This document shows positions 23,903-59,125 of a stretch of DNA of 64,000 bases, piece after piece (position 1 is the stretch's first letter; each line of letters opens with the position of its first letter). The position numbers and the translations under genes were made by a program. Below the pieces are notes generated by a model. That model was not told where the DNA came from and did not search any database. It saw nothing but the letters and a program-made list of their open reading frames with translations. Origin of the DNA: Sulfurospirillum sp. (GTDB lineage: Bacteria; Campylobacterota; Campylobacteria; Campylobacterales; Sulfurospirillaceae); assembly GCA_045047115.1 (NCBI GenBank), contig JASFYR010000008.1:77278-141277 (forward strand). Reading direction: 5' to 3'.

Positions 23903-23931
23903 AACAGCAGGGGGTTTATCCCCTGCTTGTT
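23903..23931 (-). terminator. Probable intrinsic terminator of the mbx operon
   Basis: GCAGGGG-GTTTAT-CCCCTGC GC-rich stem about 20 nt downstream of the last operon gene. Confidence 0.6.
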
Positions 23932-23950: not shown

Positions 23951-24421
23951 TTATAGATTTTTAAGTGTTCGCTCAAAGTCTCCGGCTATCTCTTCGCCTG
24001 CTTTATCTATGTCGCTGGTTGTGACATCTATCCAGTGGATAAAAAGTGTATCATCCCTTATATCCATAGTGATAGTTCCGGGAGTCAAGGTTATACTGTT
24101 TGCAAGCATCAGTTTTTTATAGTTCTCTTTAAGATCTGTTTTTATCGCAACGATACCTGGGTTTATAGGGAGTTTTGGGTCGATTACTCTTTTTGCCACA
24201 TCCCAGTTTGCCAAAATCAAAGCTTTTAAAAATGTTACCAGATATATGATATATGCAATTGGTCTAAATCTAAACTTATCACTACTTTCATAATTTTTTA
24301 CATAGAGCAGGGCGATAATGAAAGAGACAACAAAGCCGGTGATTAGCTCTTGAGAACTAAAGCTCATGGTGAGTCCCATCCAAATTAAAAATAAAAACAC
24401 TGTCCAAAATATAAGTCTCAT
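23951..24421 (-). CDS. mbxA: Mrp-Mbx subunit A (MnhE/MrpE-like)
   Basis: ANWDVAKRV, INPGIV, LANSITLTPGT, LFIHWI; ATG 24421 overlaps the mbxN stop, GGAGG RBS. Confidence 0.88.
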   Translation of the reverse strand: MRLIFWTVFLFLIWMGLTMSFSSQELITGFVVSFIIALLYVKNYESSDKFRFRPIAYIIYLVTFLKALILANWDVAKRVIDPKLPINPGIVAIKTDLKENYKKLMLANSITLTPGTITMDIRDDTLFIHWIDVTTSDIDKAGEEIAGDFERTLKNL

Positions 24422-24828
24422 TTTACCTCCTCTGCGATATTTTTTTGGTTTATAGGCATATACAAAAAATTGTCCGCACAAGAGTCAGCATGTATGCAGA
24501 TATTGTCCAGTTTTAGCGAACCAGGAGGGCATACATCTGTGCAAAGTGAACACCAGCAACATCTTCCATAGTCGATTCTTGGGATACAGCCGCTTGTATT
24601 TTTTATATTGTACTCTTTATCAGGATGTATCATATCTATCGCTTCATTCATACAAACCTCTTGACAGTTTGCACAACCGATGCAGGCTTCAAGGTCGTTT
24701 ATATGAAAACCTCTGTAGCCTTTTGGTATATCTTTTTTTACTGCAGGATAAGTTACGGTCTTAGGATGTTCAAACAGAGTTCCTATCGCACTAAGTGGCG
24801 ATAAAACACCTTTTATATCTATAGCCAT
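24418..24828 (-). CDS. mbxN: Mrp-Mbx 2x[4Fe-4S] subunit N (NuoI-like)
   Basis: YRGFH, CIGCANCQEVC and IDYGRCCWCSLCTDVCP. Confidence 0.88.
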   Translation of the reverse strand: MAIDIKGVLSPLSAIGTLFEHPKTVTYPAVKKDIPKGYRGFHINDLEACIGCANCQEVCMNEAIDMIHPDKEYNIKNTSGCIPRIDYGRCCWCSLCTDVCPPGSLKLDNICIHADSCADNFLYMPINQKNIAEEVK

Positions 24829-24838
24829 TTTATCTCCT

Positions 24839-25951
24839 TTATCTCTCTATCTCAGGTGGACATATGCCAAGTGAGTTCATAGTCATCGCTACATCTGCAA
24901 GTTGTGAATCCACAAGCAGTTTTTCAAGCAAAGTATATGCATGTATCAGTGAAGGGCCCCGTACTTGCATTCTTCTTATTTTTTCACTTCCGTCACCTGC
25001 CATATAGTAGCTCATAGCCCCTCTGGCGCTCTCTGTTTGTACATAGGTGTCATCTTTTGGGAGTTTGAATTTTCTGTGTTTTGGAATTTTTTGTAAAATC
25101 TCTCCCTCTTTTGGCATCTGCTCTATAATCTGTCTTAAGATTCTGATTGATTGGATTATCTCATCTCTTCTTACAAGCGCCCTGGCATAGACATCTCCAT
25201 CGCTCTGTGTCGGTATATCAAATTCTAATTTATCATACATAAGGTAGGGTATATCTCTTCTTACATCTTTTTTGATTCCGCAAGCTCTCATGGTTTGACC
25301 TACATATCCGTTCTTTAAGACTTCATCTTTGTTTACTGCGCCAACACCTATGGCTCTTTGTTTAAAAATAACATTATCAAAAAATGTATTGTTGTAGACT
25401 ATGATTCTTTTTTCATAATAATCAAGCAACTCTGAGAGTCTGTCTAAAAATCCGTCTGGTAAATCTCTTCTGACTCCACCTGGAAATGCGTACATATGAT
25501 ACACTCTTCCTCCTGTGAGTTCTTCAAAAAGATCCAGCATATAGTCTCTGTCGCAAACTGACCATTGAGGTATGAGACCGAGTCCTATGGAGCCTGCTTG
25601 CCCGCCCATCCATAAAAACTGAGTTGCTAGTCTTTGCATCTCCAAAACCATGGTTCTTATGTATTTTGCTTTTTCGCTTATTTCTAATCCTGCGAGATTT
25701 TCAACTGCTCTTGCAAAGTTTTCTTCGTTTGGATCCGGTTCGGGAACGCAGATCCTGCAAACTATCGTAAAAGCCTGTACCACAGTCCTTCTCTCTATCA
25801 GTTTTTCAAAACCCCTATGAAGATAGCCGACATGAGTTTGGGCTTTTTTTATGGTTTCACCAATCAAATCAAGCTCTACACTCATATTTCCCGTGATGCC
25901 AGGGTGTTGAGGTCCGTGAAAGATTTTTACCATTTTTTCATTTTCAGTCAT
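24839..25951 (-). CDS. mbxL: Mrp-Mbx catalytic subunit L (NuoD-like, no NiFe site)
   Basis: GPQHPG, GYLHRGFEKL, RICVPE and C-terminal CPPEIER; lacks the paired CxxC NiFe ligands. Confidence 0.88.
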   Translation of the reverse strand: MTENEKMVKIFHGPQHPGITGNMSVELDLIGETIKKAQTHVGYLHRGFEKLIERRTVVQAFTIVCRICVPEPDPNEENFARAVENLAGLEISEKAKYIRTMVLEMQRLATQFLWMGGQAGSIGLGLIPQWSVCDRDYMLDLFEELTGGRVYHMYAFPGGVRRDLPDGFLDRLSELLDYYEKRIIVYNNTFFDNVIFKQRAIGVGAVNKDEVLKNGYVGQTMRACGIKKDVRRDIPYLMYDKLEFDIPTQSDGDVYARALVRRDEIIQSIRILRQIIEQMPKEGEILQKIPKHRKFKLPKDDTYVQTESARGAMSYYMAGDGSEKIRRMQVRGPSLIHAYTLLEKLLVDSQLADVAMTMNSLGICPPEIER

Positions 25952-26552
25952 TTTTTTCTACCTCATCACTTAGGTTGTTTTCCACTTGCGTATCTACTTT
26001 GACCTTTGCTTCTTGTTCGGCTTTTAGTTTTGCTGCTTTTTTAGCCTCTCTCTTCTTTTTCATCTCCACTTTTGCATCAAGCCCGTCATCTCTTTGTCCA
26101 CGAAACGGATTCATACTGTTTACATACTCAAGCGTATCAAAATCCCTTCTCATAGGCGGTATATTCTCCCAGTGCTCCAGTGCAAAGTCTATGAGGCTTG
26201 GGTGAGTAGGAAAATCAACACCAAACATTTCATGCATCTCTCTCTCCATTATCTCCGCTTGAGGCCAAAAAGTGTGCATTGACGGTAGTGTTGCATTTTC
26301 TCTTTGTATATTAGTTTGTACCATTACTATGTGATCTCTGTTTTGTGTTTGTAAACAGTATGTGATAGTGAAAAACCCGTCTTCTATATCGTCTCGACAA
26401 TTTATGGAGTCAAGTGTTATATATCCATACTCGTTTAAAAATCTCAACAACAGCGACTCTAACTGTTGGGCATCTATATTTACTTTATAGAGATAGTCAT
26501 TTTTTGGTATAAGTTCAAGTGAGAGTTTTTCCAATTTTGAAGCTAAATCCAT
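25944..26552 (-). CDS. mbxK: Mrp-Mbx subunit K (NuoC-like)
   Basis: WPQAEIMEREMHEMFGVDF, LEHW..IPPMRRDFDT; ATG 26552 overlaps the mbxJ stop. Confidence 0.85.
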   Translation of the reverse strand: MDLASKLEKLSLELIPKNDYLYKVNIDAQQLESLLLRFLNEYGYITLDSINCRDDIEDGFFTITYCLQTQNRDHIVMVQTNIQRENATLPSMHTFWPQAEIMEREMHEMFGVDFPTHPSLIDFALEHWENIPPMRRDFDTLEYVNSMNPFRGQRDDGLDAKVEMKKKREAKKAAKLKAEQEAKVKVDTQVENNLSDEVEKND

Positions 26553-27187
26553 TATGCAATTCCTCCGCCGTTTAAATTGTACCAATCAGTCTCATAGGCC
26601 GGGTCGATATGTCCTCCCAAGACTCTTTTTTGGTTGTTTTTATAAAATTCCAAATTTTCATCATATTTTTGCCAACCGGCTTTTTCACCGTTTTTTATCT
26701 TCTCTTGAAGAAGGACAAATCCCTCTATTACTGACTCTGGGCGAGGCATACAGCCTGGTACCAAAACATCTACTGGTAGATAGTCATCCAGTTTTTTAAT
26801 AGTATTGTAAGAGTCCCAGTACATTCCGCCGTTTATCGGACAACTTCCAAGCGTGATGATATACTTTGGTCTTTGCATCTGCTCATATGTTCTTATAACT
26901 CTTCTTAGAGTTTTATATGCAAGATAACCTGAAAGTATGATCAAGTCAGCCTGCCTTGGCGTGGCAACTCCTACTACGCCCATTCTCTCAGCATCATACC
27001 TGCTTGTGAAGGTAGGAGGCATTTCGATAGCTCCACATCCTGTGCCGTAAGCCACTACAAATATGCTTCTGCTTTGAAACCATTTTACAGCCTTTTCCAT
27101 AACAGAGTGAGTGTTTACCACTCCGCTCTCTTCTAATTTACATTTCAAACTTCCATCTAAATCGCAACCGTGAAAACCACTCTCCAT
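26552..27187 (-). CDS. mbxJ: Mrp-Mbx [4Fe-4S] subunit J (NuoB-like)
   Basis: TGCGAIEMPP, RYDAERMG, GSCPINGGMYWDSY, PGCMPRPE; start 27187 or 27205. Confidence 0.88.
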   Translation of the reverse strand: MESGFHGCDLDGSLKCKLEESGVVNTHSVMEKAVKWFQSRSIFVVAYGTGCGAIEMPPTFTSRYDAERMGVVGVATPRQADLIILSGYLAYKTLRRVIRTYEQMQRPKYIITLGSCPINGGMYWDSYNTIKKLDDYLPVDVLVPGCMPRPESVIEGFVLLQEKIKNGEKAGWQKYDENLEFYKNNQKRVLGGHIDPAYETDWYNLNGGGIA

Positions 27188-27197
27188 CTTATCCCCT

Positions 27198-28094
27198 TTA
27201 CCCAAACCAAACTACTCTAATCAGTCCTGTGACTGCGATTAGAGTTGGTATTTTCATCAAAAAATCAACAGCCTGCTCTACCTTGTATCTTCCGTAAACT
27301 ATACCTATGAAGATAATGGATACAAATATAGCAAGAGTTTTTAGCACCAACATATATAAAGAGTCAGCTCCGCCTAAAAACAGATCAACTATCAAAACCA
27401 GCTTTGCAAAAGCAAAGATAGAGCCCTGAGACATCAAAAGTGCTAAAAATTTGCCACTAAATTCCGTCCTTGGACCGGAATACACCTCTTGAGGAGCTCC
27501 TGGTATATCAAAAGGTGACTCTCCAAAAAAACCAACCATTGAAATCATAGCCGCTATAAAAAGAAGAGGGTGGTTTACTATGTTTAAACCCTGGATTCGC
27601 TGCATATCTATGATGTGGACTATATCACTACTGTTTGCTGCGATGATGAGCCCTACTATCGCTATATAAAAAGGCAGTTCCAGGCCTATGAGTCTTGTTA
27701 AGCCTCTAACAACACCCATGACCCCAAAAGGGTTTCCACCGGTTCCAACTGCAAGGGCATTTCCAAGAGGTCCTAAAACCATTAGATATAGAAGCACAAA
27801 GAGATTTCCTTGTGAATTTACAGCTCTTAGAAACCCGCTTTGTGTAAATACGGGTACAAAAAGAAGTGTCAAAACTGCTCCGGTTGCCATGATGATTGGT
27901 CCCAGATAGAACATCCAGCCATAACTTATAGAGTCTTTTTTTGAAAAGAGTTTTATACTGTCATAAAATGACTGGTATATCGTAGGTCCATATCTGCCTT
28001 GAATCCTTGCAGTTATATTTCGGTATAGTCCAAAGTATATGAAGCCGACTACATAAGCTAGCATGATCAGTAAAATTATTTGAAAAATCATCAA
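27198..28094 (-). CDS. mbxM: Mrp-Mbx subunit M (NuoH-like)
   Basis: ARIQGRYGP..YQ...D..KL, PFDIPGAPQEVYSGP.TEFSG. Confidence 0.87.
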   Translation of the reverse strand: MMIFQIILLIMLAYVVGFIYFGLYRNITARIQGRYGPTIYQSFYDSIKLFSKKDSISYGWMFYLGPIIMATGAVLTLLFVPVFTQSGFLRAVNSQGNLFVLLYLMVLGPLGNALAVGTGGNPFGVMGVVRGLTRLIGLELPFYIAIVGLIIAANSSDIVHIIDMQRIQGLNIVNHPLLFIAAMISMVGFFGESPFDIPGAPQEVYSGPRTEFSGKFLALLMSQGSIFAFAKLVLIVDLFLGGADSLYMLVLKTLAIFVSIIFIGIVYGRYKVEQAVDFLMKIPTLIAVTGLIRVVWFG

Positions 28095-29863
28095 TTGACT
28101 CCTGTAAAAAATAGTGCACTAAAGAAGAGCAGGATTATAAGCATTGTATTGTGGATATTTCCATAGTACATTCGGCTAAAGAGCTCAGATGTCCTTTTGG
28201 TTTGTGTTGCTAACGATTCATAAAAGCCTGTTGTGCTTCTTTTTAGTATGGCATTTACAAATTTGATTCTATATAAATCAGTACCAAAACCATACCCGAA
28301 GTGTAGCGGGGTATCACTTGAGGGGACTTCACCACAATAACTTATGTCAAATCTGTTTATATTTTTTTTTGCTTTAGAGTTTACTTTCCAGACAAGAAGC
28401 AAGATAACAATAAATACAATAACAAACGCACTCATGATAAAAAATCCATCAAAATTGCCAACTGCACTGTGTAAAACTCCAATTCCGTCATATGGTATAA
28501 GTGGAAGCATAAATTCCTTTAAGATAGGGTTTATCACCTCTACAAATACTCCCGGGAATGTTCCTGTTCCTATTAAAAGCAGAGCCAAGATAATCTGGGG
28601 AATCAAATAGCTAAGGGGTACCTCTTTTGTGCTTTCCAAATTCTTAGAAGTAGGGTGTCCTAAATAGATACCGTAAACAAGCTTATAACAATACAGAAAT
28701 GATGCAGCACCGGAAAAAAGCATACCTATAAGAATAAGAGCAAATTTTGTGTTGATTGCTGCGTTATAGAGTAGAAATTTTGAAGCAAAACCACCAAGTG
28801 GAGGCATGCCTGCAAGTCCGATGATACCGATAAGCAACATCACAAAAGAGACAGGAGTTCTATATATCAATCCGCCTAACTCACTAAATCTGTTTTTGCC
28901 GGTTTGCGCTACAATAGCAGCTACATTTATAAATAGCAACAACTTAATGATAGTATGAATCAAAGTATGGTACAAGGCTCCTGCAACTCCATAAGTTGTG
29001 CCAAAGCCGATAACGGCTATGATATAACCTAGTTGTGCGATAGATGAGTATGCAAGCAGTCTTTTGACTTCATCTTGTGTGATGGCTTTGAAAGTGGCTA
29101 TGATGGAGGTAGCAACTCCTATCCAGGCCAAAGTGTATCCAAAGTCAGTTCCGTTTAGTATGACCCCAAAGATCTCTTTTAACTGAGTGTATCCTACGAT
29201 ATTTCCATATATCAAAAGTAGTCCGTATATGCCCATTTTCGACATAACGGCAGAGAGGATGGAGCTAAAGAGATCCGGTGATTTGGAGTATGTGTCAACC
29301 ACCCAGTAGTGCAAGCCTATAACGCCGGCTTTTATAAAAAAGCTTAGTGAGAAGAGCACTATGAGGGTTACTTTTATATTCAGAGGCATCGAGCCAAAGG
29401 CGCTTGAGACCGTAGAAAAATCAAATGAGTTTGCAAAAGAGTATGCGATCACCATACCTGCTATCAAAGAGAAAGCCGATGTAAGTGAGAAAAGTATATA
29501 CTTTTGCAAAGTTTTTGTATCTATATTTTTTGATTTTGAGATTAGAAAGTAACTACTCCAAGTCATAATCTCCCAGCCGATAAAAAATGTGATAAAATCA
29601 CCTGCCATCACTATAACAAACATGGCTATCGAGAGTAAAAATTGCAATACATAATAATTGCAGGAGAGTTTTTTACTCTTCTGGGCTATCGTAACAAGTA
29701 AAAATGAGATCAAACTCAAGTATGCAAAGAATGTACCAAGTGGAGTCTGCGTAAGGCTTAGTGTAAAGCCGGGTGCAAAATTTAGCTCTATATGCAGAGC
29801 TCCTCCAAACTGGTACAAAAACAGTATAGGCAGTAAGTTCAAAAGTAAAAAGATCGAATTCAT
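28091..29863 (-). CDS. mbxH': Mrp-Mbx antiporter-like subunit H' (MrpA/D, NuoL/M/N family)
   Basis: FFIGWEIM, KAGVIGLHYW, LAYSSIAQLGY, GMPPLGGFASK. Confidence 0.85.
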   Translation of the reverse strand: MNSIFLLLNLLPILFLYQFGGALHIELNFAPGFTLSLTQTPLGTFFAYLSLISFLLVTIAQKSKKLSCNYYVLQFLLSIAMFVIVMAGDFITFFIGWEIMTWSSYFLISKSKNIDTKTLQKYILFSLTSAFSLIAGMVIAYSFANSFDFSTVSSAFGSMPLNIKVTLIVLFSLSFFIKAGVIGLHYWVVDTYSKSPDLFSSILSAVMSKMGIYGLLLIYGNIVGYTQLKEIFGVILNGTDFGYTLAWIGVATSIIATFKAITQDEVKRLLAYSSIAQLGYIIAVIGFGTTYGVAGALYHTLIHTIIKLLLFINVAAIVAQTGKNRFSELGGLIYRTPVSFVMLLIGIIGLAGMPPLGGFASKFLLYNAAINTKFALILIGMLFSGAASFLYCYKLVYGIYLGHPTSKNLESTKEVPLSYLIPQIILALLLIGTGTFPGVFVEVINPILKEFMLPLIPYDGIGVLHSAVGNFDGFFIMSAFVIVFIVILLLVWKVNSKAKKNINRFDISYCGEVPSSDTPLHFGYGFGTDLYRIKFVNAILKRSTTGFYESLATQTKRTSELFSRMYYGNIHNTMLIILLFFSALFFTGVN

Positions 29864-31308
29864 AGTCCTACTCCTAATGCATAATTGAGATAGCTAGTCG
29901 GATGCAGTAGTGCATTTGCGGCTAAATCCGTATAGTGAAGCAGAAATGACGGATATATGCCAAAAAACACAATGAGTGCTGCTAAAACAGTGAGTATGGC
30001 ATAGTTTACAGCTCCAATATTTATCACTACTTTTGCTCTTTTTTTGTCTGTCATCATAGCGATAATTCTAAAAAAGTATATCGCTTCTACAATCGATACT
30101 AAAAGTATAAATGCAACAGCACCGTAGTTGTGTGAAAGTGCAAAACCTTTTAGTATAAGTATTTTTCCTATAAATCCACTAAACGGTGGAATTCCGAGGA
30201 CCGATAAAAATGATATGATAAGCACAAGAGTCAAAAATGTTGATTTAAAACCGCCTAAGATATCTATTTTCATACTTTTTAGTTTATGTATCAATATACC
30301 CAGAGCCAAAAATATCAACAGTTTTGATATAGAGTGGCTGGTTAGCTGAAATAGCGCACCCGAGACCGTAGTGAGTGAATCTGTACTAAATGCCATAAAC
30401 AAGATACCCAGCTGTCCGAGTGTTGAGTAGGCAAAAAGCCTTTTGACATTTGTTTGATTTAGTGCGGTAAATTCGGAGACAAGAAATGTCACGCCACCTA
30501 TAACAAGTACAAAAAGCATATATTTTGAGTTCAATCCAAATAGATAAAAAAGGTGAAAAAAGACAAAAAGGTAGGCTTTTGCCACAACTGAGCTAAAGAG
30601 TCCGTTCACAGGAGTTATGCTACCTTGGTAGATATCCGGTGCCCAAAAGTTCATGGGAAAAAGCTCCGCTTTTGTGCCAAACCCCATAAAAAGCATCAAG
30701 ACAATAAGAACTGAGATTTTTGGATCTATCAGGTGAAATCTTTGTGCTATGAGACCTAGATTTACAGTACCGATCTGCAGATATATGAGCATGATTGCAA
30801 AAACTATAAATATAGAAGCGATGGAACCGATAATGAGGTACTTGATACCGGATTCCAGCCCCGGCTTGTCTTTGTTGTATGCTGAAAGTGTGTATGAGCA
30901 AATACCTGTAATCTCAAAGAAAATATAGAGGTTAAATATATCGCAGCTCAGTATCATGCCGATACTGCCGGCTATGAGCATATTGAAAAAGACATAAAAT
31001 CTAGCCTCATCTCTCTTTTGGTGCGCTTTAAAAAACCAAGGCATATACAAAGACACCATAAGCCCGGAAAATGTAAAAATCAACAAAAAGAGCAAAGAGT
31101 ACCCATCCAGTATAAACGCGATTCCCAAAGGAGGTTTTATAGAAAACTCAGAAATCTGTGGAAGAGTTACACCTGTGTAAGCTAAAGTTTGTAAAAATAG
31201 AAGTAAATTTAAGACTATAGAACTAGCTCTAAGGACTCCTAGTTTTTTAAAATACGGAGTTAAAAATGAAAAAATTACGGGTAGTAAAAAATAGTAACCT
31301 AAGCTCAT
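29860..31308 (-). CDS. mbxH: Mrp-Mbx antiporter-like subunit H (MnhD-like)
   Basis: DIFNLYIFFE, KAELFPMNFWAPD, AYSTLGQLG, GIPPFSGFIGK. Confidence 0.87.
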   Translation of the reverse strand: MSLGYYFLLPVIFSFLTPYFKKLGVLRASSIVLNLLLFLQTLAYTGVTLPQISEFSIKPPLGIAFILDGYSLLFLLIFTFSGLMVSLYMPWFFKAHQKRDEARFYVFFNMLIAGSIGMILSCDIFNLYIFFEITGICSYTLSAYNKDKPGLESGIKYLIIGSIASIFIVFAIMLIYLQIGTVNLGLIAQRFHLIDPKISVLIVLMLFMGFGTKAELFPMNFWAPDIYQGSITPVNGLFSSVVAKAYLFVFFHLFYLFGLNSKYMLFVLVIGGVTFLVSEFTALNQTNVKRLFAYSTLGQLGILFMAFSTDSLTTVSGALFQLTSHSISKLLIFLALGILIHKLKSMKIDILGGFKSTFLTLVLIISFLSVLGIPPFSGFIGKILILKGFALSHNYGAVAFILLVSIVEAIYFFRIIAMMTDKKRAKVVINIGAVNYAILTVLAALIVFFGIYPSFLLHYTDLAANALLHPTSYLNYALGVGL

Positions 31309-31309
31309 A

Positions 31310-31687
31310 TCAATCCCTTAATTCATTCATTTTAGATATATCATTTCTGCCTGTGAGTTTATAGTACTCTATACCAAACGACAATCCAAGCGCCAAGATC
31401 GCAAGTCCTATAACGATGGTTGTCAAAATCATCGCCTGAGGAACAGGATCCACCATATTTGTAAATGTTTTTAGATTTTTATCAACTATCGGTGCTACCA
31501 AACCAACTTTATAGTGAAGTCCTATAAAAAATAAAAAGAGGGCTGACTCCATGATATCAAAAGAGACGAGAAGTTTTACCAGGTTTTTTTGTGTGGCGAT
31601 TCCGTAAAATCCAACAAAAAAAAGAGACATGGAGCCCACTATGATGATAAAATGTATAGTCTGTGTATCATTAAAAAACTCAAGCAT
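31310..31687 (-). CDS. mbxG: Mrp-Mbx subunit G (MnhC-like)
   Basis: NLVKLL, DPVPQAMILTTIVIG. Confidence 0.88.
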   Translation of the reverse strand: MLEFFNDTQTIHFIIIVGSMSLFFVGFYGIATQKNLVKLLVSFDIMESALFLFFIGLHYKVGLVAPIVDKNLKTFTNMVDPVPQAMILTTIVIGLAILALGLSFGIEYYKLTGRNDISKMNELRD

Positions 31688-32408
31688 CGCACACCTCTTT
31701 ATAGTAATCTTCTTTTATAAAATACTCCACAATCACGCTCATCTCGCTTCCGACTTTTATACCTACTATGATGTAAATCACAGGGATAATACCACCACTT
31801 ATCAACTCTCCTATCTCACTAATCGGGTGAGGCAGGAAGTTTCCAAGCAGGATATTCATCTTGAAGAGTCCGATGATAGCAATCAGGATATATGCTAAAC
31901 CGCTTAAAGATTCACCAAGTGTCAAAATACTATGGCTCAGAGACATATTTGGATTTGCTAAAAACAGCAATAAGAAGGCTGTAGCTATAACAACACCACC
32001 TTGAAATCCTCCACCGGGACTTAAATGTCCATGGATGATGATATATACACCAAAGAGAACAATCACACTCATCAGCAGACGACCCCCGACATTTAGTATG
32101 AAGCTATCTTGTTTTACAACTTTTGCACAAGTTCTCTGGGTAGTGCTAAGCATCAGTGCCACACCGGATGTTGCTAAAAACAACACTGTGACTTCACCGA
32201 CAGTATCAATTCCTCTGAAAAATGTAACAACAGAAGTTACTGCATTTGCTGTGGCTGTTTGCATATTTAGATTTAAAAACAGATCCCCGACTGTTTCAAA
32301 TGTATCTGTTTTGACTTGCATAAGAAGTCCTAGAATTGACAGAAGAAGAGCAGAAGACAGTATGGATAGAACTATATGCTTGAGTCTTAACTCTTTTTTT
32401 AGATTCAT
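31680..32408 (-). CDS. mbxF: Mrp-Mbx subunit F (MnhB-like)
   Basis: ANAVTSVV..FRGIDTVGE, HGHLSPGGGFQGG. Confidence 0.88.
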   Translation of the reverse strand: MNLKKELRLKHIVLSILSSALLLSILGLLMQVKTDTFETVGDLFLNLNMQTATANAVTSVVTFFRGIDTVGEVTVLFLATSGVALMLSTTQRTCAKVVKQDSFILNVGGRLLMSVIVLFGVYIIIHGHLSPGGGFQGGVVIATAFLLLFLANPNMSLSHSILTLGESLSGLAYILIAIIGLFKMNILLGNFLPHPISEIGELISGGIIPVIYIIVGIKVGSEMSVIVEYFIKEDYYKEVCDA

Positions 32409-32653
32409 GACTCCACCTCCTCTTGTGAAGTGTGCCTTATACCGAGTAAAAATACAGCTGCACTGAGCCCGGTACCTATAACAGCTTCAGTAAGTGCAAC
32501 ATCAGGAGCTTGAAATATGAAGAAAAGAACAACGCTTCCAAGACCGACTGCCATAAAAAGCATAACAGACTGCGTAATGTCTTTACTTAAAATTGCTCCT
32601 ACAGCTACTGCGATAATCGACAAAAAGGTAAAAAGTATAAGTAAACCTATCAT
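32405..32653 (-). CDS. mbxD: Mrp-Mbx subunit D (DUF4040/MbhD-like)
   Basis: QAPDVALTEAVIG motif. Confidence 0.85.
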   Translation of the reverse strand: MIGLLILFTFLSIIAVAVGAILSKDITQSVMLFMAVGLGSVVLFFIFQAPDVALTEAVIGTGLSAAVFLLGIRHTSQEEVES

Positions 32654-32985
32654 TCTTCATTCTCCTTCGAAGTCTCTTTGAGTGCATCAGTTCCACTTGT
32701 ATTGTAAACACTTTTATAAAATCTTTTATATGTAGTCATCGCCAACACAGAAGAAGATATAGGATTTGTAATGAGTATAAAAACAGCTAAAACGATGAGT
32801 TTAAATGCCCATTGTGGCTCAAAACAGGCAACTGCCAAAATCACCAGCAAAGAGCCAAGCGTCGAAGCCTTTGTTGCTGCTTGCATCCTTGTTAGGGTGT
32901 CTGGCATACGAAGCAGTCCAAGACCGCTTATTAAAAACAGTACAGCTCCTAAAAGCCCAAGTATGTAACCTAAGAAAACCAGCAT
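32650..32985 (-). CDS. mbxC: Mrp-Mbx subunit C (MnhG-like)
   Basis: GLLRMPD..TRMQAATKASTLG, TNPISS. Confidence 0.88.
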   Translation of the reverse strand: MLVFLGYILGLLGAVLFLISGLGLLRMPDTLTRMQAATKASTLGSLLVILAVACFEPQWAFKLIVLAVFILITNPISSSVLAMTTYKRFYKSVYNTSGTDALKETSKENEE

Positions 32986-33233
32986 TAAAACTCCTTATCC
33001 AAGAATTTGGCAAATACAACAGTACCTACAAATCCAATCAGTCCAAAAACAAATGCCACATCAAGATATAGACTTTTTTGAAAATAAAAAGAGAGTACAA
33101 CCAACAGTGAAGTGGCAATGATACTCATCGAATCAAAGGCTACAACCCGATCAGCGAGAGTTGGACCTCTTAAGAATCTAACCAAGACCAGAAGCAGTGA
33201 TAACGCTATAAGCAAAATCAAAAAATTTAACAT
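32985..33233 (-). CDS. mbxB: Mrp-Mbx subunit B (MnhF-like)
   Basis: RFLRGPTLADRVVAFD, YLDVA; ATG 33233 after GGGGTGA RBS. Confidence 0.88.
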   Translation of the reverse strand: MLNFLILLIALSLLLVLVRFLRGPTLADRVVAFDSMSIIATSLLVVLSFYFQKSLYLDVAFVFGLIGFVGTVVFAKFLDKEF

Positions 33234-33364
33234 AATCACCCCATTAAAATTTACTTTATGCAAGATTATCTTGAATATGCTTTTTGATTGCTAAGCAATT
33301 GTAATTATTTTATTTACTTAATATTAATATTAGAGAGATAACAAACAAATGACAAAAATATATG

Positions 33365-34531
33365 CTATTTTTTATTTTCTAAATAGTTCAGCAGATTAAA
33401 CAATTCTTGATTTTCTTCGTTTAATTTGGATTTGTCAAGGGTCTTGAGGTAGTATCTTAAAAATGTCAAAGAGCTGTATGGATAGGGTATGTTTGATTCT
33501 TCAAAGCGGGCTATTATAGCTTTTGAGTAACTTGCTTTTTTCCACATAAGTCTGTCAAACAAAAATGCCATAGAATCAAGTATCTCTATAAGGCTTTTTA
33601 TATTTTTTTCATATGAGGATTCAAATTTTTCACTAAATTCATTGAAAAAGTGTTCAAAATACTCATCAGTTATGGGTAAAAGCATTTCATTTTCTTCTCT
33701 TAGGGTGCCAATATAGTCAATAGCATCGACATAAAGACTCTTTAGATGCTTGATATTATGCTTAAGAGTTGTGAGTTCCAGATCATCTTTGTTGAGTTCT
33801 CCTAGCTGAGCCATTTTCTGTTTAATTTCACTTTCCATTACGCTTAGACTTGCTTTTAGACTCTTCATGGCGGAGATATTTCTCTCTAAGCGTTTTTTTG
33901 CCTCCTTGTATCTTGTATATCTTAAAAATATATTTGAAAATGCAATTTTTGGGTACATATAGCTTTTTTTGTATATATTGTATATATCATTTATGTTTTG
34001 AATGTTTTGATAGACTTCTGTGAGATTTCCATCAGCAAGTGAACTGTCTATCTCCAAAAGATTGTTATAAGCGGTAAATAAAAATCTTTTTATCCTAAAA
34101 TAATCCAATCTCTCGTCACCTGATTGAAGTTCATAATCTTTGTATTTACTGACAGTATCCCTTAAAGAAGAGAAAAAATTGTTCATTGTGGTATTTATAA
34201 AGTTTTTTGGAACAGTTTTTATAGAGTAAAAATCCGGGTCAATTTTTTTATCAATTGACTCTATATTCTCATCTGGCAAGCTTGTTTGGAGTATAGTCTT
34301 TTTTGCATCTTGTATATCTATGGGATTGTTGGTTTTAGTATCGGCTTTGGACTGCTTCTTGATACTTTTGGCAATCCCGTCTTCCAAGACAAAAGAGACC
34401 TTTAGTCCAATCTGCGGTAAGTTGTCTAAATCATCCCAAGATTCTATATCAAATCTATACTTCTGTTTTTCATTTGAAAGTATCAAACCAGTGCCATTAT
34501 CAGTATTGTAAAATATAATAGTTCCATTCAT
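33365..34531 (-). CDS. Hypothetical protein, N-terminal cold-shock/OB-like segment plus coiled coil
   Basis: MNGTIIFYNTDNGTGLI..GLKVSF N-terminus; heptad-rich middle. Confidence 0.6.
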   Translation of the reverse strand: MNGTIIFYNTDNGTGLILSNEKQKYRFDIESWDDLDNLPQIGLKVSFVLEDGIAKSIKKQSKADTKTNNPIDIQDAKKTILQTSLPDENIESIDKKIDPDFYSIKTVPKNFINTTMNNFFSSLRDTVSKYKDYELQSGDERLDYFRIKRFLFTAYNNLLEIDSSLADGNLTEVYQNIQNINDIYNIYKKSYMYPKIAFSNIFLRYTRYKEAKKRLERNISAMKSLKASLSVMESEIKQKMAQLGELNKDDLELTTLKHNIKHLKSLYVDAIDYIGTLREENEMLLPITDEYFEHFFNEFSEKFESSYEKNIKSLIEILDSMAFLFDRLMWKKASYSKAIIARFEESNIPYPYSSLTFLRYYLKTLDKSKLNEENQELFNLLNYLENKK

Positions 34532-53863: not shown

Positions 53864-54777
53864 ATTACCAAGCTGTTTTAGAGGAGATAAGAGAAGAGGT
53901 GAGAGGGTTTTTTGGAAAAGGCAGAGTAGCAGACTATATCCCGGCTCTCAAAAGAGTGGATTCTGCCCATTTTGCTATGAGTTTACAGCTTTTTGACGGC
54001 TCTTTCTATGGGGTCGGTGAGGTTGATTGTAGATTTTCCATTCAGAGTATATCGAAAGTTTTTACTTATGCTATGGTTCTGCCTCTATATCAAAAAGATC
54101 TCTACAAGAGGATAAGCCACGAACCATCAGGAAACCCTTTTAATTCGCTGGTTCAGTTGGAGTATGAAAAAGGCATACCGAGAAATCCTTTTATAAATGC
54201 AGGAGCTATCGTAGTTACAGATATGTTAAAATCTACATACGGAGGCGAAACATTTTCAAAAATTCTTGATTTTATCAAAGAAGTAAGCGACAATGACAGC
54301 ATAGGCTACGATAAAGAAGTGGCGCTTTCTGAGCTAAATTTTGGTTTTAGAAACGCAGCATTGGTCAACATGATGAAAAGTTTCAAAAATATTTCAAATG
54401 ACACAAATTGTGTGATGGATACATATTTTAAACAGTGCTCCATCTCTATGAGTGCGAAAGAGCTCAGCAGGGCAGTTCTTTTTTTTGCAAACCATGGTGT
54501 TGATCCGATCACCAAGAAAAGGTTTTTAAGTGAGTCTCAGGCGAAAAGATTAAACTCTTTGATGCTGACATGTGGGCACTATGATGCCTCAGGAGATTTT
54601 GCTTTTAGAGTGGGCTTACCAGGTAAAAGTGGTGTAGGAGGCGGTATAGTAGCACTTGTTCCAAATCTTATGTCGATCTGTGTTTGGTCGCCGGAGCTAA
54701 ATGAAAAAGGTAATTCGCTTGTGGGCACCAAAGCACTGGAGCTGTTTACAACAAAAACAGGACTCTCTATATTTTAG
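53860..54777 (+). CDS. glsA: Glutaminase
   Basis: VADYIPAL, FSIQSISKVF, EPSGNPFN, NPFINAGA, GLPGKSGVGGG. Confidence 0.95.
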   Translation: MNYQAVLEEIREEVRGFFGKGRVADYIPALKRVDSAHFAMSLQLFDGSFYGVGEVDCRFSIQSISKVFTYAMVLPLYQKDLYKRISHEPSGNPFNSLVQLEYEKGIPRNPFINAGAIVVTDMLKSTYGGETFSKILDFIKEVSDNDSIGYDKEVALSELNFGFRNAALVNMMKSFKNISNDTNCVMDTYFKQCSISMSAKELSRAVLFFANHGVDPITKKRFLSESQAKRLNSLMLTCGHYDASGDFAFRVGLPGKSGVGGGIVALVPNLMSICVWSPELNEKGNSLVGTKALELFTTKTGLSIF

Positions 54778-54799
54778 TTAAAAGTAAAGCTCTGACCCT
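54773..54799 (-). repeat. GGGTCAG-motif repeat copy 1 (type A)
   Basis: TTTAGTTAAAAGTAAAGCTCTGACCCT, identical to 55945-55971. Confidence 0.9.
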
Positions 54800-54835
54800 A
54801 TCATTTTGAATGAATTTTATGCTATAATATTTTTT

Positions 54836-55207
54836 ATGAAAACAATCGAGATCAAAAATGCTTTACCATTATCAGTATTTTCCCATGAGATGCTTTATGC
54901 ATTGATAGAAAAAACTGTAAGTAATGTCAATGATAAAATCTCAAATCTTGTAAAAAGTGGTGAATTGATAAGACTCAAAAAAGGTTTTTACACTTTTTCA
55001 AAACCATACCTTACAAAACCTATAGATCTAATCAGCGTCGCAAATATACTCTATACCCCATCTTATGTATCATTTGACTATGCACTTAGTTTTTATGGGA
55101 TGATACCTGAGAGAGTAAGAGAGATTGCATCAGCCACAAGCAAAAACAAAAAGATTTTTGACACTCCAATTGGTTATCAATTTGTTCTATCTTTTAATGC
55201 ATTATAA
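54836..55207 (+). pseudogene. 3'-truncated AbiEi-type (type IV TA) antitoxin
   Basis: LIRLKKGFY, ANILYTPSYVSFDYALSFYGMIPERV, FDTPIG, then runs into the relE 3' end; no AbiEii partner. Confidence 0.75.
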
Positions 55208-55464
55208 ACTTTATTATTTTCTCGTTTACCTACACTTATCACATAAACAGTAATCTTAGTATCTTGCACTTCGTAAGTTAAACGATAACCGATATTTCTT
55301 AATTTAATTTTATATATATTTTCATGACCACTTAATTTATCTTTAGTAATTCGTGGATTTGTCAGTCTCTTTTTAAGTTTTTTATGAAACTGTAATTTTA
55401 TAGTAGAGCTTAATTTATCCCACTCTTTTAAGGCTTTAGGATGAAAATCAAGTAAGTAAGTCAT
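55177..55464 (-). CDS. relE: RelE/StbE-family toxin
   Basis: ALKEWDKL, KLSG, YKIKLR..GYRL.YEV, VISVGKRE. Confidence 0.9.
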   Translation of the reverse strand: MTYLLDFHPKALKEWDKLSSTIKLQFHKKLKKRLTNPRITKDKLSGHENIYKIKLRNIGYRLTYEVQDTKITVYVISVGKRENNKVYNALKDRTN

Positions 55465-55705
55465 CTATATCTACTCTTATAGATTCTAGCCCATCATTTA
55501 ATCTCTCATCAACAACTTTACTTAAATAATAGTCATCTACTATATCTATCATTTTTTCGTATAATGTACTAGGTACAAGATATGCTGAAGCTACATTGTG
55601 ATTTAAAATTGCAACTGCTTCATCACCTGCATTTTTTAGTAATTGTGTTGGCGATTTTTTAAGTTCCGTTATACTAGCTGTGTAGTTCGCTAAAATTGGT
55701 TGCAT
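55448..55705 (-). CDS. Phd/YefM (StbD-like) antitoxin
   Basis: ASITELKKSP, AVAILNHN...AYLVP; overlaps the toxin. Confidence 0.88.
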   Translation of the reverse strand: MQPILANYTASITELKKSPTQLLKNAGDEAVAILNHNVASAYLVPSTLYEKMIDIVDDYYLSKVVDERLNDGLESIRVDIDDLLT

Positions 55706-55784
55706 ATTTAGTCCTTTATTTAGTATCTTTTATAACTCATTATATCATATTTTCAATTAGATTTCATGCCTAATCGTTCAAATA

Positions 55785-55826
55785 AAAAATTTACTATTCA
55801 CCATCCACAATTATCCATTTTCAATT
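55785..55826 (-). repeat. Degenerate heptamer tandem array
   Basis: + strand AAAAATT TACTATT CACCATC CACAATT ATCCATT TTCAATT. Confidence 0.7.
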
Positions 55827-55922
55827 ATTTTCAGCAACTTCCCCTCAAACTCTTCTCGTCCACTTTCAAAATATGAAAATGATAATGGGAAAAAACAGTT
55901 CAAGAATGGTTATATACATTAT

Positions 55923-55992
55923 AAGTTTATTTCCAATACTTCTCTTTAGTTAAAAGTAAAGCTCTGACCCTGCTCTTTCTAATTCTGACCCC
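55923..55992 (-). repeat. GGGTCAG-motif copies 2 and 3, plus a partial type B leader
   Basis: AAGTTTATTTCCAATAC at 55923-55939; 27-bp copy at 55945-55971; CTGACCCC at 55985-55992 next to the yoeB stop. Confidence 0.85.
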
Positions 55993-55993
55993 A

Positions 55994-56254
55994 CTATCCT
56001 CCGTAATGATATTTACATGATACGATATTTATATCAAAATCATTAACTTCATAAACCAATCTATGCTCATCTGCAATTCTTCGTGACCAACAGCCTGCTA
56101 ATTCATATTTTAAAGGTTCAGGTTTACCAATCCCTTCATAAGGATCTCTTTTTATATCTTTCAATAAACTATTTATCTTTTTTAATACTTTTTTATCTTT
56201 ATTTTGCCAATCAACATATTCATCCCAAGACCTATCACTCCAAATCAATCTCAT
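55994..56254 (-). CDS. yoeB: Txe/YoeB-family toxin
   Basis: GIGKPEPLKY, WSRRI..EHRLVY, CKYHY. Confidence 0.93.
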   Translation of the reverse strand: MRLIWSDRSWDEYVDWQNKDKKVLKKINSLLKDIKRDPYEGIGKPEPLKYELAGCWSRRIADEHRLVYEVNDFDINIVSCKYHYGG

Positions 56255-56502
56255 TCTAAAATATCTTTTTCAAATCCTTTGCCATTTCTTAATTGATTTA
56301 AAGATGCTAATAAATTTTTTTTATTTGCGGGTGAACTAAGTAAATAGTTTGTCTCTTTCATAGAATTATATTCATCAAAAGGGATAACTACAACATTTTC
56401 TTTCCCTTTTCTATGGATAATCACTTCATCATTATCATGATACACAGCATCAAAGATATATTTAAAATTATTCCTAGCTTCTGTCATACTTACAACTTGC
56501 AT
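56251..56502 (-). CDS. yefM: YefM antitoxin
   Basis: SMTEARNN, EYNSMKET.YLLSSPAN. Confidence 0.9.
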   Translation of the reverse strand: MQVVSMTEARNNFKYIFDAVYHDNDEVIIHRKGKENVVVIPFDEYNSMKETNYLLSSPANKKNLLASLNQLRNGKGFEKDILE

Positions 56503-56523
56503 AATTATATCCTTACATTATAT

Positions 56524-56540
56524 TGTACAGTATTATATCA
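56524..56540 (-). promoter_or_regulatory. yefM-yoeB promoter with probable autorepression operator
   Basis: TGATATAAT extended -10 immediately followed by a TGTACA palindrome, the core of the E. coli YefM operator. Confidence 0.55.
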
Positions 56541-56589
56541 TAAATTTTATAAAAGCATTAACACTTTGCTAAATCTACTCGTTACCCAA

Positions 56590-56624
56590 AATAATTCTCC
56601 ATTATTCATTATTCATTTTTAATT
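56590..56624 (-). repeat. Degenerate heptamer tandem array
   Basis: + strand AATAATT CTCCATT ATTCATT ATTCATT TTTAATT. Confidence 0.7.
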
Positions 56625-56632
56625 AAATAATG

Positions 56633-56659
56633 GTTTATTTCCAATACCTGACCCCGCTA
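56633..56659 (-). repeat. GGGTCAG-motif copy 4 (type B)
   Basis: GTTTATTTCCAATACCTGACCCCGCTA; its CTA is the PIN toxin stop. Confidence 0.85.
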
Positions 56660-57073
56660 TTTTCCGCTTAAAAATTCTTCACAATTCATTATCTCAATAC
56701 CGCAGTTACAAAACTTTTTATCATTTGTTATTAGTATATTGCATCCATTTTCTTTTGCACATAAGCATTGAAGCAAATCTTCTAAGTCTAAATCTTCTTT
56801 TAGAGATAAGTTTGTAGCTTTTGAGAGTAGATCTATCCCAAACATAGATACATTCCAATCAACATATACCAATCCTCTTAAAAACTCTAGTACTACTTTT
56901 TTATCTCTTGAAATATAATACAAAGTTGTTATCATATCCTCACTGATGTATATATTATAATCTTCTAATGTTAAATTTTTCAACAGTTCTAATGATTGTA
57001 AATGTTGTATCCGAGCAGGGTCAATAATATCTACGACAATATTTGTATCCAAAAATATATTTCTATTGTCCAT
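56657..57073 (-). CDS. PIN-domain (VapC-like) toxin
   Basis: IFLDTNIVVD, DLEDLLQ, ITNDKKF acidic PIN residues. Confidence 0.88.
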   Translation of the reverse strand: MDNRNIFLDTNIVVDIIDPARIQHLQSLELLKNLTLEDYNIYISEDMITTLYYISRDKKVVLEFLRGLVYVDWNVSMFGIDLLSKATNLSLKEDLDLEDLLQCLCAKENGCNILITNDKKFCNCGIEIMNCEEFLSGK

Positions 57074-57356
57074 ATTTTTCCAATGCTACTTTTTCCTTGA
57101 TTTGACTTGATGTTAAGTTATCGAATCTTTTATATATTTTGACTTTCCCTGTATATTTTTCAATTCTATCGAGTTTTTTTTGCATCTCCTTAGATATTTT
57201 ATTATCCAAAAAAGCCTTAAATTCATCGGCATATCTAGGATGTATAAACAACCCTTTATATTCATGAGTTTTTTTATCCTTAACCTCAACATAATCATAA
57301 CCATCTAAGATATTTGAATTTCTAGCTAGTTCTCTCACGCCTACTATCCTTGTCAT
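57063..57356 (-). CDS. Putative antitoxin of the PIN toxin
   Basis: Small upstream gene overlapping the toxin; Phd-like VGVREL N-terminus. Confidence 0.7.
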   Translation of the reverse strand: MTRIVGVRELARNSNILDGYDYVEVKDKKTHEYKGLFIHPRYADEFKAFLDNKISKEMQKKLDRIEKYTGKVKIYKRFDNLTSSQIKEKVALEKYGQ

Positions 57357-57395
57357 TTTATATCCTTTGTTGTCTTTTGATATATTGTATCATAT

Positions 57396-57430
57396 TTTCA
57401 TTCAAAATTAAACATTCATCATTCACAATT
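57396..57430 (-). repeat. Degenerate heptamer tandem array
   Basis: + strand TTTCATT CAAAATT AAACATT CATCATT CACAATT. Confidence 0.75.
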
Positions 57431-57476
57431 ATTGATTAGCTCAACATTTTTAGCTTTTTGAACAACATCGTTAGGG

Positions 57477-57501
57477 TAAAAGTAAAGCTCTGACCCCGCT
57501 A
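57477..57501 (-). repeat. GGGTCAG-motif copy 5 (type A)
   Basis: TAAAAGTAAAGCTCTGACCCCGCTA. Confidence 0.88.
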
Positions 57502-57567
57502 ATTGCTATTTTTTAATGCTTTTGACACAGTAGTCCTTGAGAACTTCAAAAAATCAGCTATTTTAGT
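57499..57567 (-). pseudogene. C-terminal HTH fragment (possible Y1/RAYT-like transposase remnant)
   Basis: TKIADFLKFSRTTVSKALKNSN-TAG, ending on the repeat motif. Confidence 0.45.
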
Positions 57568-57823
57568 AATGAAATCTGCATTGTGCAATTATTATCAAAT
57601 CATCCAAGATTTTACACACGAGCCTATGCTCAGCTGTAATTCGTCGTGAGTAATAACTACTGAAATTTTCTTTTAATCTTTCTGGTCTTCCTAATCCATC
57701 TTTGTTATATGGATTTCTTTTAATATCCTTTATCAAAAGATTAACTCTTTTTAAAATCTTCTTATCATTCTCTTGCCAGTAATTATAATCTTCCCAACCT
57801 CAGTCTGCAAAGCCTAAAATCAT
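57563..57823 (-). pseudogene. yoeB: YoeB toxin with an in-frame TGA at codon 8
   Basis: MILGFAD*GWEDYNYWQENDKKILKRVNLLIKDIKRNPY...GLGRPERLK..YSRRITAEHRLV...QCRFHY; ATGA overlap with yefM. Confidence 0.88.
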
Positions 57824-58071
57824 ACATCAATTTCTTTTTGTAAAAATTTTGAATTTTCTATCTGTTCAACCGCTTCTGTCAATCTATCCCTGTTGTTTTT
57901 AGAAGAGAGCAAGTAGATTGTTTCTTTCATAGAGTTATATTCTTCTTGTGATATCAAAACAACCGACTGTTTTTCTTTTGTTGTAATAATAAACTCTTCA
58001 AAATTCTCACATACTTGGTTTATGATACTTCTTAGATTATTTCTAGCTTGAGAATATAATACTGCCTGCAT
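57820..58071 (-). CDS. yefM: YefM antitoxin
   Basis: YSQARNNL, SVVLISQEEYNSMKETIYLL; ATG 58071 after AAGGA RBS. Confidence 0.88.
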   Translation of the reverse strand: MQAVLYSQARNNLRSIINQVCENFEEFIITTKEKQSVVLISQEEYNSMKETIYLLSSKNNRDRLTEAVEQIENSKFLQKEIDV

Positions 58072-58175
58072 TGTAAATCCTTTTTTTGTCAATATATTGT
58101 CATTATAACACATTTTTCTATTGACTGAAGTCAAACTCCCCCGTAACGCCGGCTTCTGAGTATAAAATCATCTTC

Positions 58176-58376
58176 TTAATTCCCATACCCATCTGGATTT
58201 TTTAACTGCCAATTCCAGCTATCTTCACACATCTTATCTATACCAAACTTAGCTTCCCAGCCAAGTTCCTCTTTAGCTTTTGCAGCATTGGCATAACATG
58301 CGGCAATATCTCCAGCTCTTCGTTTTTGTATAGTATACGGTATACTTTTTTGACTGGCTTTTTCACAACCCTCTTT
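58176..58376 (-). pseudogene. galE: C-terminal fragment of UDP-glucose 4-epimerase
   Basis: EKASQKSIPY...RRAGDIAACYA..AKAKEELGWEAK..IDKMCEDSWNWQLKNPDGY. Confidence 0.85.
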
Positions 58377-58392
58377 AAGAAAACTAATTCTA

Positions 58393-58912: not shown

Positions 58913-58996
58913 AATCGTATCCTTAATAATACTTTTAATAGTATTATATCATCTTAATAGTTAAAGATTTACTTATCTAAAGCAATTTGTCGCTTT

Positions 58997-59125
58997 TTAA
59001 TCCCTTTTAAAATCATCCTCAATGCGAATAATATCATCTTCACCTATAAGCCCACTCTCATGTGAACCAACTGGATTAAAATATCTTAAAATATCTTCTA
59101 TCATAAGTTTTGTAGTCCCATAAGG
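58997..59125 (-). pseudogene. In-frame chimera of two galE fragments and a manC 3' end
   Basis: [14 protein letters not shown] / [16 protein letters not shown] / [12 protein letters not shown]. Confidence 0.8.

Follow-up and report, generated by a model that had tools for sequence, protein, structure and literature searches.

We identified a complete MBS/Mbx-type gene set, related to the sulfane reductase MBS of Pyrococcus, in a 64,000-nucleotide (nt) stretch of a Sulfurospirillum sp. genome (assembly GCA_045047115.1, contig JASFYR010000008.1, positions 77,278 to 141,277 of the forward strand); this whole stretch is called the window, and positions follow its numbering. Thirteen open reading frames (ORFs) lie on the minus strand from 33233 to 23951, neighbours overlapping by 1-8 nt or spaced by 1-10 nt, in the order B-C-D-E-G-H-H'-M-J-K-L-N-A (Table 1). 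Their Pfam and NCBIfam families are, in this order, MrpF, MnhG, MbhD, MnhB plus MbhE, Oxidored_q2, two Proton_antipo_M, NuoH, NuoB, NuoC, NuoD, NuoI-like and MnhE. Pyrococcus MBS (6U8Y) is the best PDB match for all ten subunits compared with that database (L, J, H', H, M, B, C, N, E and D); mbsG, mbsK and mbsA were assigned from family profiles alone. The MBS/Mbx subunit set (A, B, C, D, E, G, H, H', M, J, K, L and N) is complete, with two antiporter-like subunits and a fused E. ORF calls, family profiles and 6U8Y matches bear out the 13-gene operon and the gene order given in a preliminary description of this DNA; the gene labelled F there is the 242-aa MbsE, by its match to 6u8y_E.

Table 1. 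Genes and flanking features of the MBS/Mbx-type operon, in the direction of transcription (coordinates in the window).
Feature	Description	Length	Coordinates	Strand	Basis
Upstream region	AT-rich, four weak sigma-70-like matches	131 nt	33234..33364	-	promoter scan
mbsB	MrpF-like	82 aa	32985..33233	-	6u8y_B 60.7 bits, Mrp F 60.5 (nearly tied)
mbsC	MrpG-like	111 aa	32650..32985	-	6u8y_C best
mbsD		82 aa	32405..32653	-	6u8y best PDB match
mbsE	fused MbhE+MbhF/MrpB type	242 aa	31680..32408	-	6u8y_E, E=2.5e-46
mbsG	MrpC-like	125 aa	31310..31687	-	family profiles
mbsH	antiporter-like, predicted proton pump	482 aa	29860..31308	-	6u8y_H, E=3e-67
mbsH'	second antiporter-like, predicted pump	590 aa	28091..29863	-	6u8y_X, E=3e-66
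mbsM	NuoH-like anchor	297-298 aa	27198..28094	-	6u8y_M, E=1e-42
mbsJ	from ATG 27187	211 aa	26552..27187	-	6u8y_J 212.7 bits, next 124.9
mbsK	NuoC-like	202 aa	25944..26552	-	family profiles
mbsL	NuoD-like	370 aa	24839..25951	-	6u8y_L 301 bits, Nqo4 209, MbhL 135
mbsN		136 aa	24418..24828	-	PRK13984 positions 6-131 of 611; 6u8y best PDB match
mbsA	MrpE-like, last gene rather than first	156 aa	23951..24421	-	family profiles
Hairpin	GC-rich, directly after the mbsA stop, possible terminator		23906..23927	-	by eye; not called by scan

The residues at the centre of the complex are those of an MBS-type enzyme. J aligns with 6u8y_J without gaps over 163 residues, and its C51, C116 and C146 correspond to C28, C93 and C123 of Pyrococcus furiosus MbsJ, the only three cysteines that hold the catalytic [4Fe-4S] cluster there (PMC7684303); this three-cysteine site is predicted to be the catalytic [4Fe-4S] site of the complex. 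In the short J loop (YGTGCG), G48 takes the position of P. furiosus C25, and the GTGCG loop is common to 119 of the 120 closest J homologues. Since the P. furiosus C25A mutant stays active, as do the C85A/C385A mutants (PMC7684303), the change from cysteine to glycine removes nothing essential, and this natural substitution fits an open-iron mechanism. We also considered an N-terminal J cysteine as a fourth ligand and rejected it: there is none in 91 of the 120 homologues.

L retains two of the four NiFe cysteines, C68 (in RICVPE) and C364 (in the terminal CPPEIER), as the preliminary description had noted. Its statement that L has no NiFe CxxC pairs stands in that the second cysteine of each pair is missing; it overlooked an extra cysteine that forms an out-of-register pair, C65-R-I-C68, which all 120 of the closest homologues share. 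It had also taken the two single-cysteine motifs as marks of MBS, which has to be given up: these cysteines are dispensable in P. furiosus (PMC7684303), so the motifs are vestigial and not diagnostic of MBS, and vestigial large-subunit cysteines also occur in Fpo and in the Nuo of Nautiliales (PMC4758237; this source, and likewise PMC6374484, PMC8165549, PMC9431562, PMC9948710, PMC10045233, PMC10356935, PMC11406935, PMC11636981 and PMC13209400, is cited from the part of its text that was available). In alignments to Nqo4 and PDB sequences, J lacks the tandem Cys-Cys and L lacks the quinone-binding His38 and Tyr87 (Thr and Val stand there); both features are present in the host's own NuoB and NuoD, and P. 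furiosus MbsL also lacks His38 and Tyr87 (PMC7684303).

Most residues of the ion paths are retained as well. On the Na+ path these are D30, R31, D36 and D60 of MbsB (four of four), D31, R35 and the proline of transmembrane helix 3 of MbsC, and the equivalent of E58 in MbsD. Along the axis of the pumps, MbsH' keeps all five residues (E128, K217, K248, H336 and K399); MbsH has three of five identical (E138, K250 and K393), with E219 changed to K and H330 to Q, the following His being retained; and MbsM keeps three of five (D196, E203 and E211), with E193 displaced by one. P. furiosus MbsD (94 aa) ends in a Trp-rich dimer tail, which the mbsD product here (82 aa, no Trp) is missing. The dimer interface made through this tail is a trait of the structure for which no functional need is known, and each MBS monomer is expected to be functional according to a review (PMC8165549).

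The N subunit sets the operon apart from most of its relatives. It has 136 aa and two cluster motifs, without an NAD(P)H flavoprotein module. A metagenome scan with the J alignment gave 561 confirmed loci, and among the best 80, a sample that leans to the query, L and N are both complete in 40: N is long in 32 (589-618 aa, and one of 402 aa) and short in eight (130-136 aa). A GltD-type flavoprotein domain was found in all four long N proteins scanned, the fused form described for Thermotoga and proteobacteria (PMC4758237), and the N-terminal domain of N is 34-51% identical to that of the fused proteins. The position of mbsA differs likewise: it is last in eight of eight short-N loci; among the long-N loci it leads the operon in 17 and follows N in none. 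Both types of J loop are found together with fused N. In the ESM Atlas, N falls in generic 4Fe-4S clusters, the top one being commonest in Campylobacterota. The complex is probably a ferredoxin-type variant that arose by loss of the N flavoprotein domain, judging from these sequences. In a quick L tree the root falls, at weak support (86/87), between the fused group and the short-N loci with Chromatiaceae, and a more careful J tree leaves the base open between short-N and fused forms.

Gene order is identical in ten distinct complete loci (14 were examined; two are partial, with the same order, and two duplicate contigs were removed), so the operon arrangement is not due to chance. L identity among these relatives is 85-93%, higher than for most membrane subunits. 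Three operons of the short-N clade (L080, L086 and L096) have unrelated genes inserted between M, J, K or L and N; one of them, L096, ends after J and is possibly a decay intermediate. Both the J loop and the L motif are readable in 63 of the 80 metagenome loci, all of them kin, and there J-Gly goes with L-Cys in 52 of 54 and J-Cys with L-Cys in six of nine. A strict compensation of J Cys25 by L Cys65 is rejected on these counts, and we keep the pairing of the two positions as a lead only.

Phylogenetic analysis agrees with the preliminary description in placing the complex in the MBS/Mbx family: L and J group with Mbs/Mbx proteins, not with NuoD, NuoB or the Ehr-type subunits of the host. In the careful J tree (29 rows), the window J lies within the Mbs/Mbx clade (Thermococci, Thermotoga and Halanaerobium 'mbxJ'), split from NuoB with support of 100/100. 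The five Campylobacterota rows group together (98/96), Chromatiaceae join them (89/83), and the clade of Thermococci, Thermotoga and Halanaerobium (97/95) is separate from both. The quick L tree, in which archaeal L sequences are not among the rows, sets the window L apart from the host NuoD and Ehr subunits (SH support 96), unites it with the eight short-N loci and Campylobacterota-named proteins (SH 95), and gives this group Chromatium, Thiocystis, Thioflavicoccus and Allochromatium as sister (SH 97). The nearest relatives outside Campylobacterota are purple sulfur bacteria (Chromatiaceae) and spirochaetes. A sister relationship with Thermococcales/Thermococci was rejected with a constrained J tree (p-AU 0.0013), the constraint group having been chosen after an earlier tree had been viewed, from the hypothesis of the preliminary description. 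Four divergent J-like proteins (P0253-P0256, with loops FTGCC, FNSCG, FTACG and CSACG) branch between NuoB and Mbx and may belong to further undescribed complexes.

The operon is distributed patchily. The survey of Campylobacterota genomes that the preliminary description had proposed found L in four families of the order, in 15 genomes out of the 401 sampled, and J in four of 401 genomes sampled across the phylum, host included in both counts. Close L orthologues (85-93% identity) occur in eight of the 13 other genomes of the genus, in two of nine of a second genus (g5) and in none of nine of a third (g3); in one genome (G018), the first eight operon genes stand at a contig end. The operon is near argD in the host and in four other loci of the genus, and in three genomes (G007, G010 and G001) the same neighbourhood is contiguous and the operon site is empty. 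In an argD tree of eight genomes, carriers and non-carriers stand on either side of a branch with 100/99 support; this mixture indicates at least two independent changes between presence and absence. A recent transfer is not supported, given that the operon site is syntenic across the genus and that GC content at third codon positions (GC3) is only slightly above that of the genome (0.345 for the pooled operon, 0.312 for one nuo cluster of the host and, among long ORFs, 0.299±0.041). A plasmid search returned only NuoD-type matches of about 36%. We infer that the operon was acquired long ago from other sulfur bacteria, or has a common origin with theirs, and was then lost repeatedly. Of the horizontal acquisition proposed earlier, what stands is an old event, consistent with the patchy distribution and the kin among Chromatiaceae and spirochaetes; a clade with Thermococci does not.

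What the complex may do has to be judged against the metabolism of the host, whose genome is 100% complete. Eleven molybdopterin genes are present: for four of them PhsA/PsrA is the best match, though none reaches the curated cut-off (one of the four has an NrfD-type anchor), and the others include two TtrA-like genes, NapA, two of the Tor/Bis type and Fdh. Two pyruvate:ferredoxin oxidoreductases and OorA lie above curated cut-offs, beside an IorA-like gene, two Nfn-like loci and small ferredoxin-like ORFs; a search of the host genome with PF00258 (flavodoxin) gave no match. The host further has two NiFe hydrogenase large subunits, citrate lyase, soxY and two glgA genes. It also has two Nuo clusters and a tandem Ehr-like cluster. 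The Nuo clusters (G000:C14:5798-19595 and G000:C25:14658-27920) both look complete, with labels assigned partly by eye, and one has a fused NuoCD and ORFs of the size of NuoE/F; the Ehr/Hyf-like region (G000:C14:108512-122909) consists of two tandem modules with several antiporter-like subunits, two small subunits and two large subunits without NiFe CxxC motifs. A formate dehydrogenase alpha gene (G000:C21:41008-42345) has one in-frame TGA, which we presume probably encodes selenocysteine.

Taking these observations together, we consider it reasonably likely that the 13 genes encode an ion-pumping ferredoxin:polysulfide reductase of the MBS/Mbx family, working alongside the Psr/Phs-like enzymes; the subunit set and key residues are read from the sequence, and donor, acceptor, direction and pumping are assigned by homology. 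Ferredoxin reduced by pyruvate or 2-oxoglutarate oxidoreductases, Nfn or a cytoplasmic hydrogenase would dock on the short N, and electrons would pass from the N clusters to the J cluster, with its three cysteines and open iron, as in the P. furiosus structure. By analogy, the S-S bond of polysulfide would be cleaved in a hydrophobic chamber formed by L, J and M, while H and H' would pump protons and the A/B/C/E module would exchange protons for Na+. About 41 kJ/mol per two electrons is available to P. furiosus MBS (PMC7684303). The complex could serve as a ferredoxin-level, energy-conserving electron sink in anoxic, sulfur-rich spells, parallel to the quinone-fed Psr/Phs, with the breakdown of glycogen or organic acids as one likely source of electrons. 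The operon stands beside GH57, pfk and pgi genes in two genomes of one family (f6) and beside ackA-pta in two loci, and within the genus glgA is found in nine of nine operon carriers, as against two of five non-carriers.

Several points weigh against this assignment. L scores only about 300 bits to the sole characterised enzyme, which comes from a hyperthermophile, and in the literature searched we found assays only for a hyperthermophilic archaeon and none of a bacterial MBS; for the Mrp-Mbx of Endoriftia, function and direction are listed as unknown (PMC11636981). MbsM E104 is not retained. The operon is missing from 22 of 22 sampled genomes of genus g3. Growth on elemental sulfur (S0) needs no MBS, since four Psr/Phs-like and two Ttr-like enzymes are available to the host; beside the four Psr/Phs-like enzymes, the complex would be a second sulfur route in this host, as the preliminary description had suggested. 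Outside the genus, none of three carriers (G018, G030 and G036) has a glgA match, so the link to glycogen is not obligate. Finally, Sulfolobus NuoD likewise lacks His38 and Tyr87 (Degli Esposti 2015, PMC4758237), so their loss does not exclude a quinone.

Among the rival explanations, the least improbable, though still an unlikely one, is that the complex runs mainly in reverse, an ion gradient driving electrons from sulfide or polysulfide uphill to ferredoxin for carbon fixation by the reductive tricarboxylic acid (rTCA) cycle. An ATP-citrate lyase match is present in the host and in all 13 other genomes of its genus, the host has soxY, the short N suits ferredoxin, and the nearest relatives are sulfur oxidisers; moreover, by co-expression, the Endoriftia Mrp-Mbx neighbours rTCA genes rather than Calvin-Benson-Bassham genes (PMC11636981). 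However, lyase and operon are not tied to each other: G030 and G036 (95% and 98% complete) carry the operon without a citrate-lyase match, G001, G007 and G010 retain citrate lyase and have empty operon sites, and the operon is missing from most Campylobacterales with citrate lyase. Ranking just after it, and doubtful when its four parts are taken jointly, is a combined proposal: a Campylobacterota lineage would have shed the Mbx NAD(P)H module and rebuilt a reversible ferredoxin-type complex; this complex would be a polysulfide sink in anoxic glycogen fermentation and would pass electrons from sulfide to ferredoxin for the rTCA cycle when sulfide is plentiful; its purple sulfur bacterial sister clade would be the missing enzyme for the dark reduction of stored sulfur; and L Cys65, beside the old NiFe site, may replace the lost J Cys25.

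We likewise doubt, next in order, that the complex is a ferredoxin:(methyl)menaquinone oxidoreductase, a third complex I-like pump feeding a low-potential quinone pool and from there Psr. MBS and complex I have chambers of equal width (PMC7684303), methylmenaquinone-6 (MMK-6) makes up 95% of the quinone of strain 1612 (PMC13209400), and some quinone-linked NuoD proteins do without His38 and Tyr87 (PMC4758237). J lacks the tandem Cys-Cys and L these two residues, however, and the host already has two canonical Nuo clusters in which they are present. Less probable again is the older 'Mbx' model, in which ferredoxin or polysulfide would be linked to NAD(P)H, here by a separate flavoprotein of the GltD/Nfn type in place of the lost domain. 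This model is in print (PMC4758237), such a flavoprotein forms part of N in 32 of the 40 related loci that could be scored, and GltD/NfnB-like genes occur in the host; but their identity to the fused domain is only 33-36%, they lie within Nfn or glutamate-synthase loci, and no GltD-like gene adjoins the operon in any examined locus.

A complex that is mainly an Mrp Na+/H+ antiporter for marine life, with a redox arm of minor use, is very improbable in our view: the Na+-path residues are retained, the operon holds the only MnhB match of the host, and Table S10 of a pangenome study gives MnhB/C/E/F/G as specific to vent Sulfurospirillum (PMC13209400), but conservation of L (85-93%) exceeds that of most membrane subunits, and all ten complete loci retain intact redox genes. 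A group 4 NiFe hydrogenase of the MBH/Ech type, suggested by a weak, sub-cut-off NiFeSe_Hases match at the L N-terminus (20 bits) and the out-of-register CxxC, is scarcely tenable, as L is missing the second cysteine of both NiFe pairs and scores 135 bits to MbhL against 301 to MbsL, with no maturation genes within the operon.

We compared the complex favoured here, the ferredoxin:polysulfide reductase, with described systems. It shares with P. furiosus MBS the 13 subunits, the fused E, the two antiporter-like pumps, the three-cysteine J cluster, the two vestigial L cysteines, the lack of His38 and Tyr87, an N without a flavin module, and most pump and Na+ residues. It differs in the glycine at J Cys25, the extra L Cys65, the lost M E104, the missing Trp-rich D tail and the length of N (136 versus 208 aa); its host is Gram-negative, with quinones, Psr/Phs and two complex I clusters, and it is not sister to the Thermococci proteins. 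The bacterial mbx-like operons of Thermotoga and proteobacteria (PMC4758237, PMC9431562) have the same core subunits, and many of them the GTGCG loop in J; the window operon departs from them in lacking the NAD(P)H flavoprotein and in having mbsA last. The Mrp-Mbx of Ca. Endoriftia (PMC11636981) and the MBS of strain 3DAC (PMC10356935), likened here by their descriptions, also belong to bacterial vent hosts, of other phyla; the latter is of the 13-gene type and linked to S0, and the former is linked to rTCA co-expression. PsrABC (Wolinella, Sulfurovum indicum; PMC10045233) has the same proposed acceptor, polysulfide, and is otherwise an unrelated protein, fed by quinol, freeing sulfide from the chain end, without an Mrp-type pump. 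Complex I has homologous NuoB, C, D, H and I subunits; the window operon lacks its NuoA/J/K/EFG and NuoA/J/K/L/M/N sets, tandem Cys-Cys and quinone His/Tyr, and includes MrpE/F/G homologues. L scores 385 bits against a cut-off of 360 for PRK06075, and J passes two NuoB subfamily cut-offs, which is the likely reason why databases label such proteins NADH-quinone oxidoreductase D and B; the complex as a whole goes there under the names of complex I and an antiporter.

We also checked the surroundings of the operon. A promoter scan of the region gave 45 sites against 41.8 expected, not above chance, and located no promoter for the operon; an Rfam search of the window gave no match. The upstream neighbour on the same strand (33365-34531) encodes a 388-aa protein with no Pfam or NCBIfam match; it adjoins the operon in three examined genomes, including the host, and is missing in others. 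The interval 23890-23648, just downstream of the operon, has a strong sigma-70-like promoter (11 of 12) 240 nt before dedA and a hairpin at 23861-23844; without an Rfam match, it may hold a small RNA or leader. Elsewhere in the window (54773-63918), a low-GC region (0.28-0.32) holds six toxins of the toxin-antitoxin type within a sugar-nucleotide gene cluster: two ParE, YoeB, PIN, HigB/YafQ-like and YafQ, most of them with a small partner ORF alongside. Between these toxins lie five copies of a 34-nt repeat, spaced 1.2-1.7 kb apart, an arrangement that resembles a cassette array.

The MBS/Mbx family and its occurrence in bacteria are already known, as the preliminary description had said, from Thermotoga, strain 3DAC, Endoriftia and proteobacteria; mbxA of T. 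maritima is up 4.4-fold with S0 (PMC9431562), and the MBS homologue of strain 3DAC is upregulated by S0 (PMC10356935). Our literature searches found no paper that places MBS/Mbx in Campylobacterota, although subscription papers (Schut 2016) and the supplements of PMC7684303 and PMC4758237 could hold one. The main texts of PMC13209400 and PMC9948710 have no 'Mbx' or 'Mrp', and the available texts of PMC11406935 and PMC10045233 have no 'Mrp' or 'antiporter' and no 'MBS' or 'Mbx', respectively. The earlier claim that the novelty lies in the host agrees with these searches, but it overlooked the short N, the terminal mbsA, the Cys25→Gly change and the missing dimer tail; what is new is the variant with short N, mbsA last and Cys25→Gly, in a host group for which we found no description of it.

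So far, Psr-type molybdoenzymes have been invoked to explain sulfur reduction in vent Campylobacterota (PMC10045233, PMC9948710), and Table S10 of the 2026 pangenome lists MnhB/C/E/F/G as vent-specific Na+/H+ antiporter genes (PMC13209400). An MBS-type complex would add to these bacteria a ferredoxin-level, ion-pumping route of sulfur reduction that annotation has masked. For example, the cultured Sulfurospirillum sp. 1612, which grows on H2 or organic acids with S0 (PMC11406935), encodes homologues of L (85%) and J (72%) labelled NuoD and NuoB, and its description names, in the text available, only Psr and nuoA-N (PMC11406935). This mesophilic strain (optimum 28 °C, growth with S0) makes substrate, direction and ion stoichiometry testable. 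In C. okenii, stored sulfur is possibly an electron sink during glycogen oxidation (PMC6374484), and the complexes of the same clade in Chromatium, Thiocystis, Allochromatium and Thiorhodococcus are candidates for the dark sulfur reduction of these bacteria.

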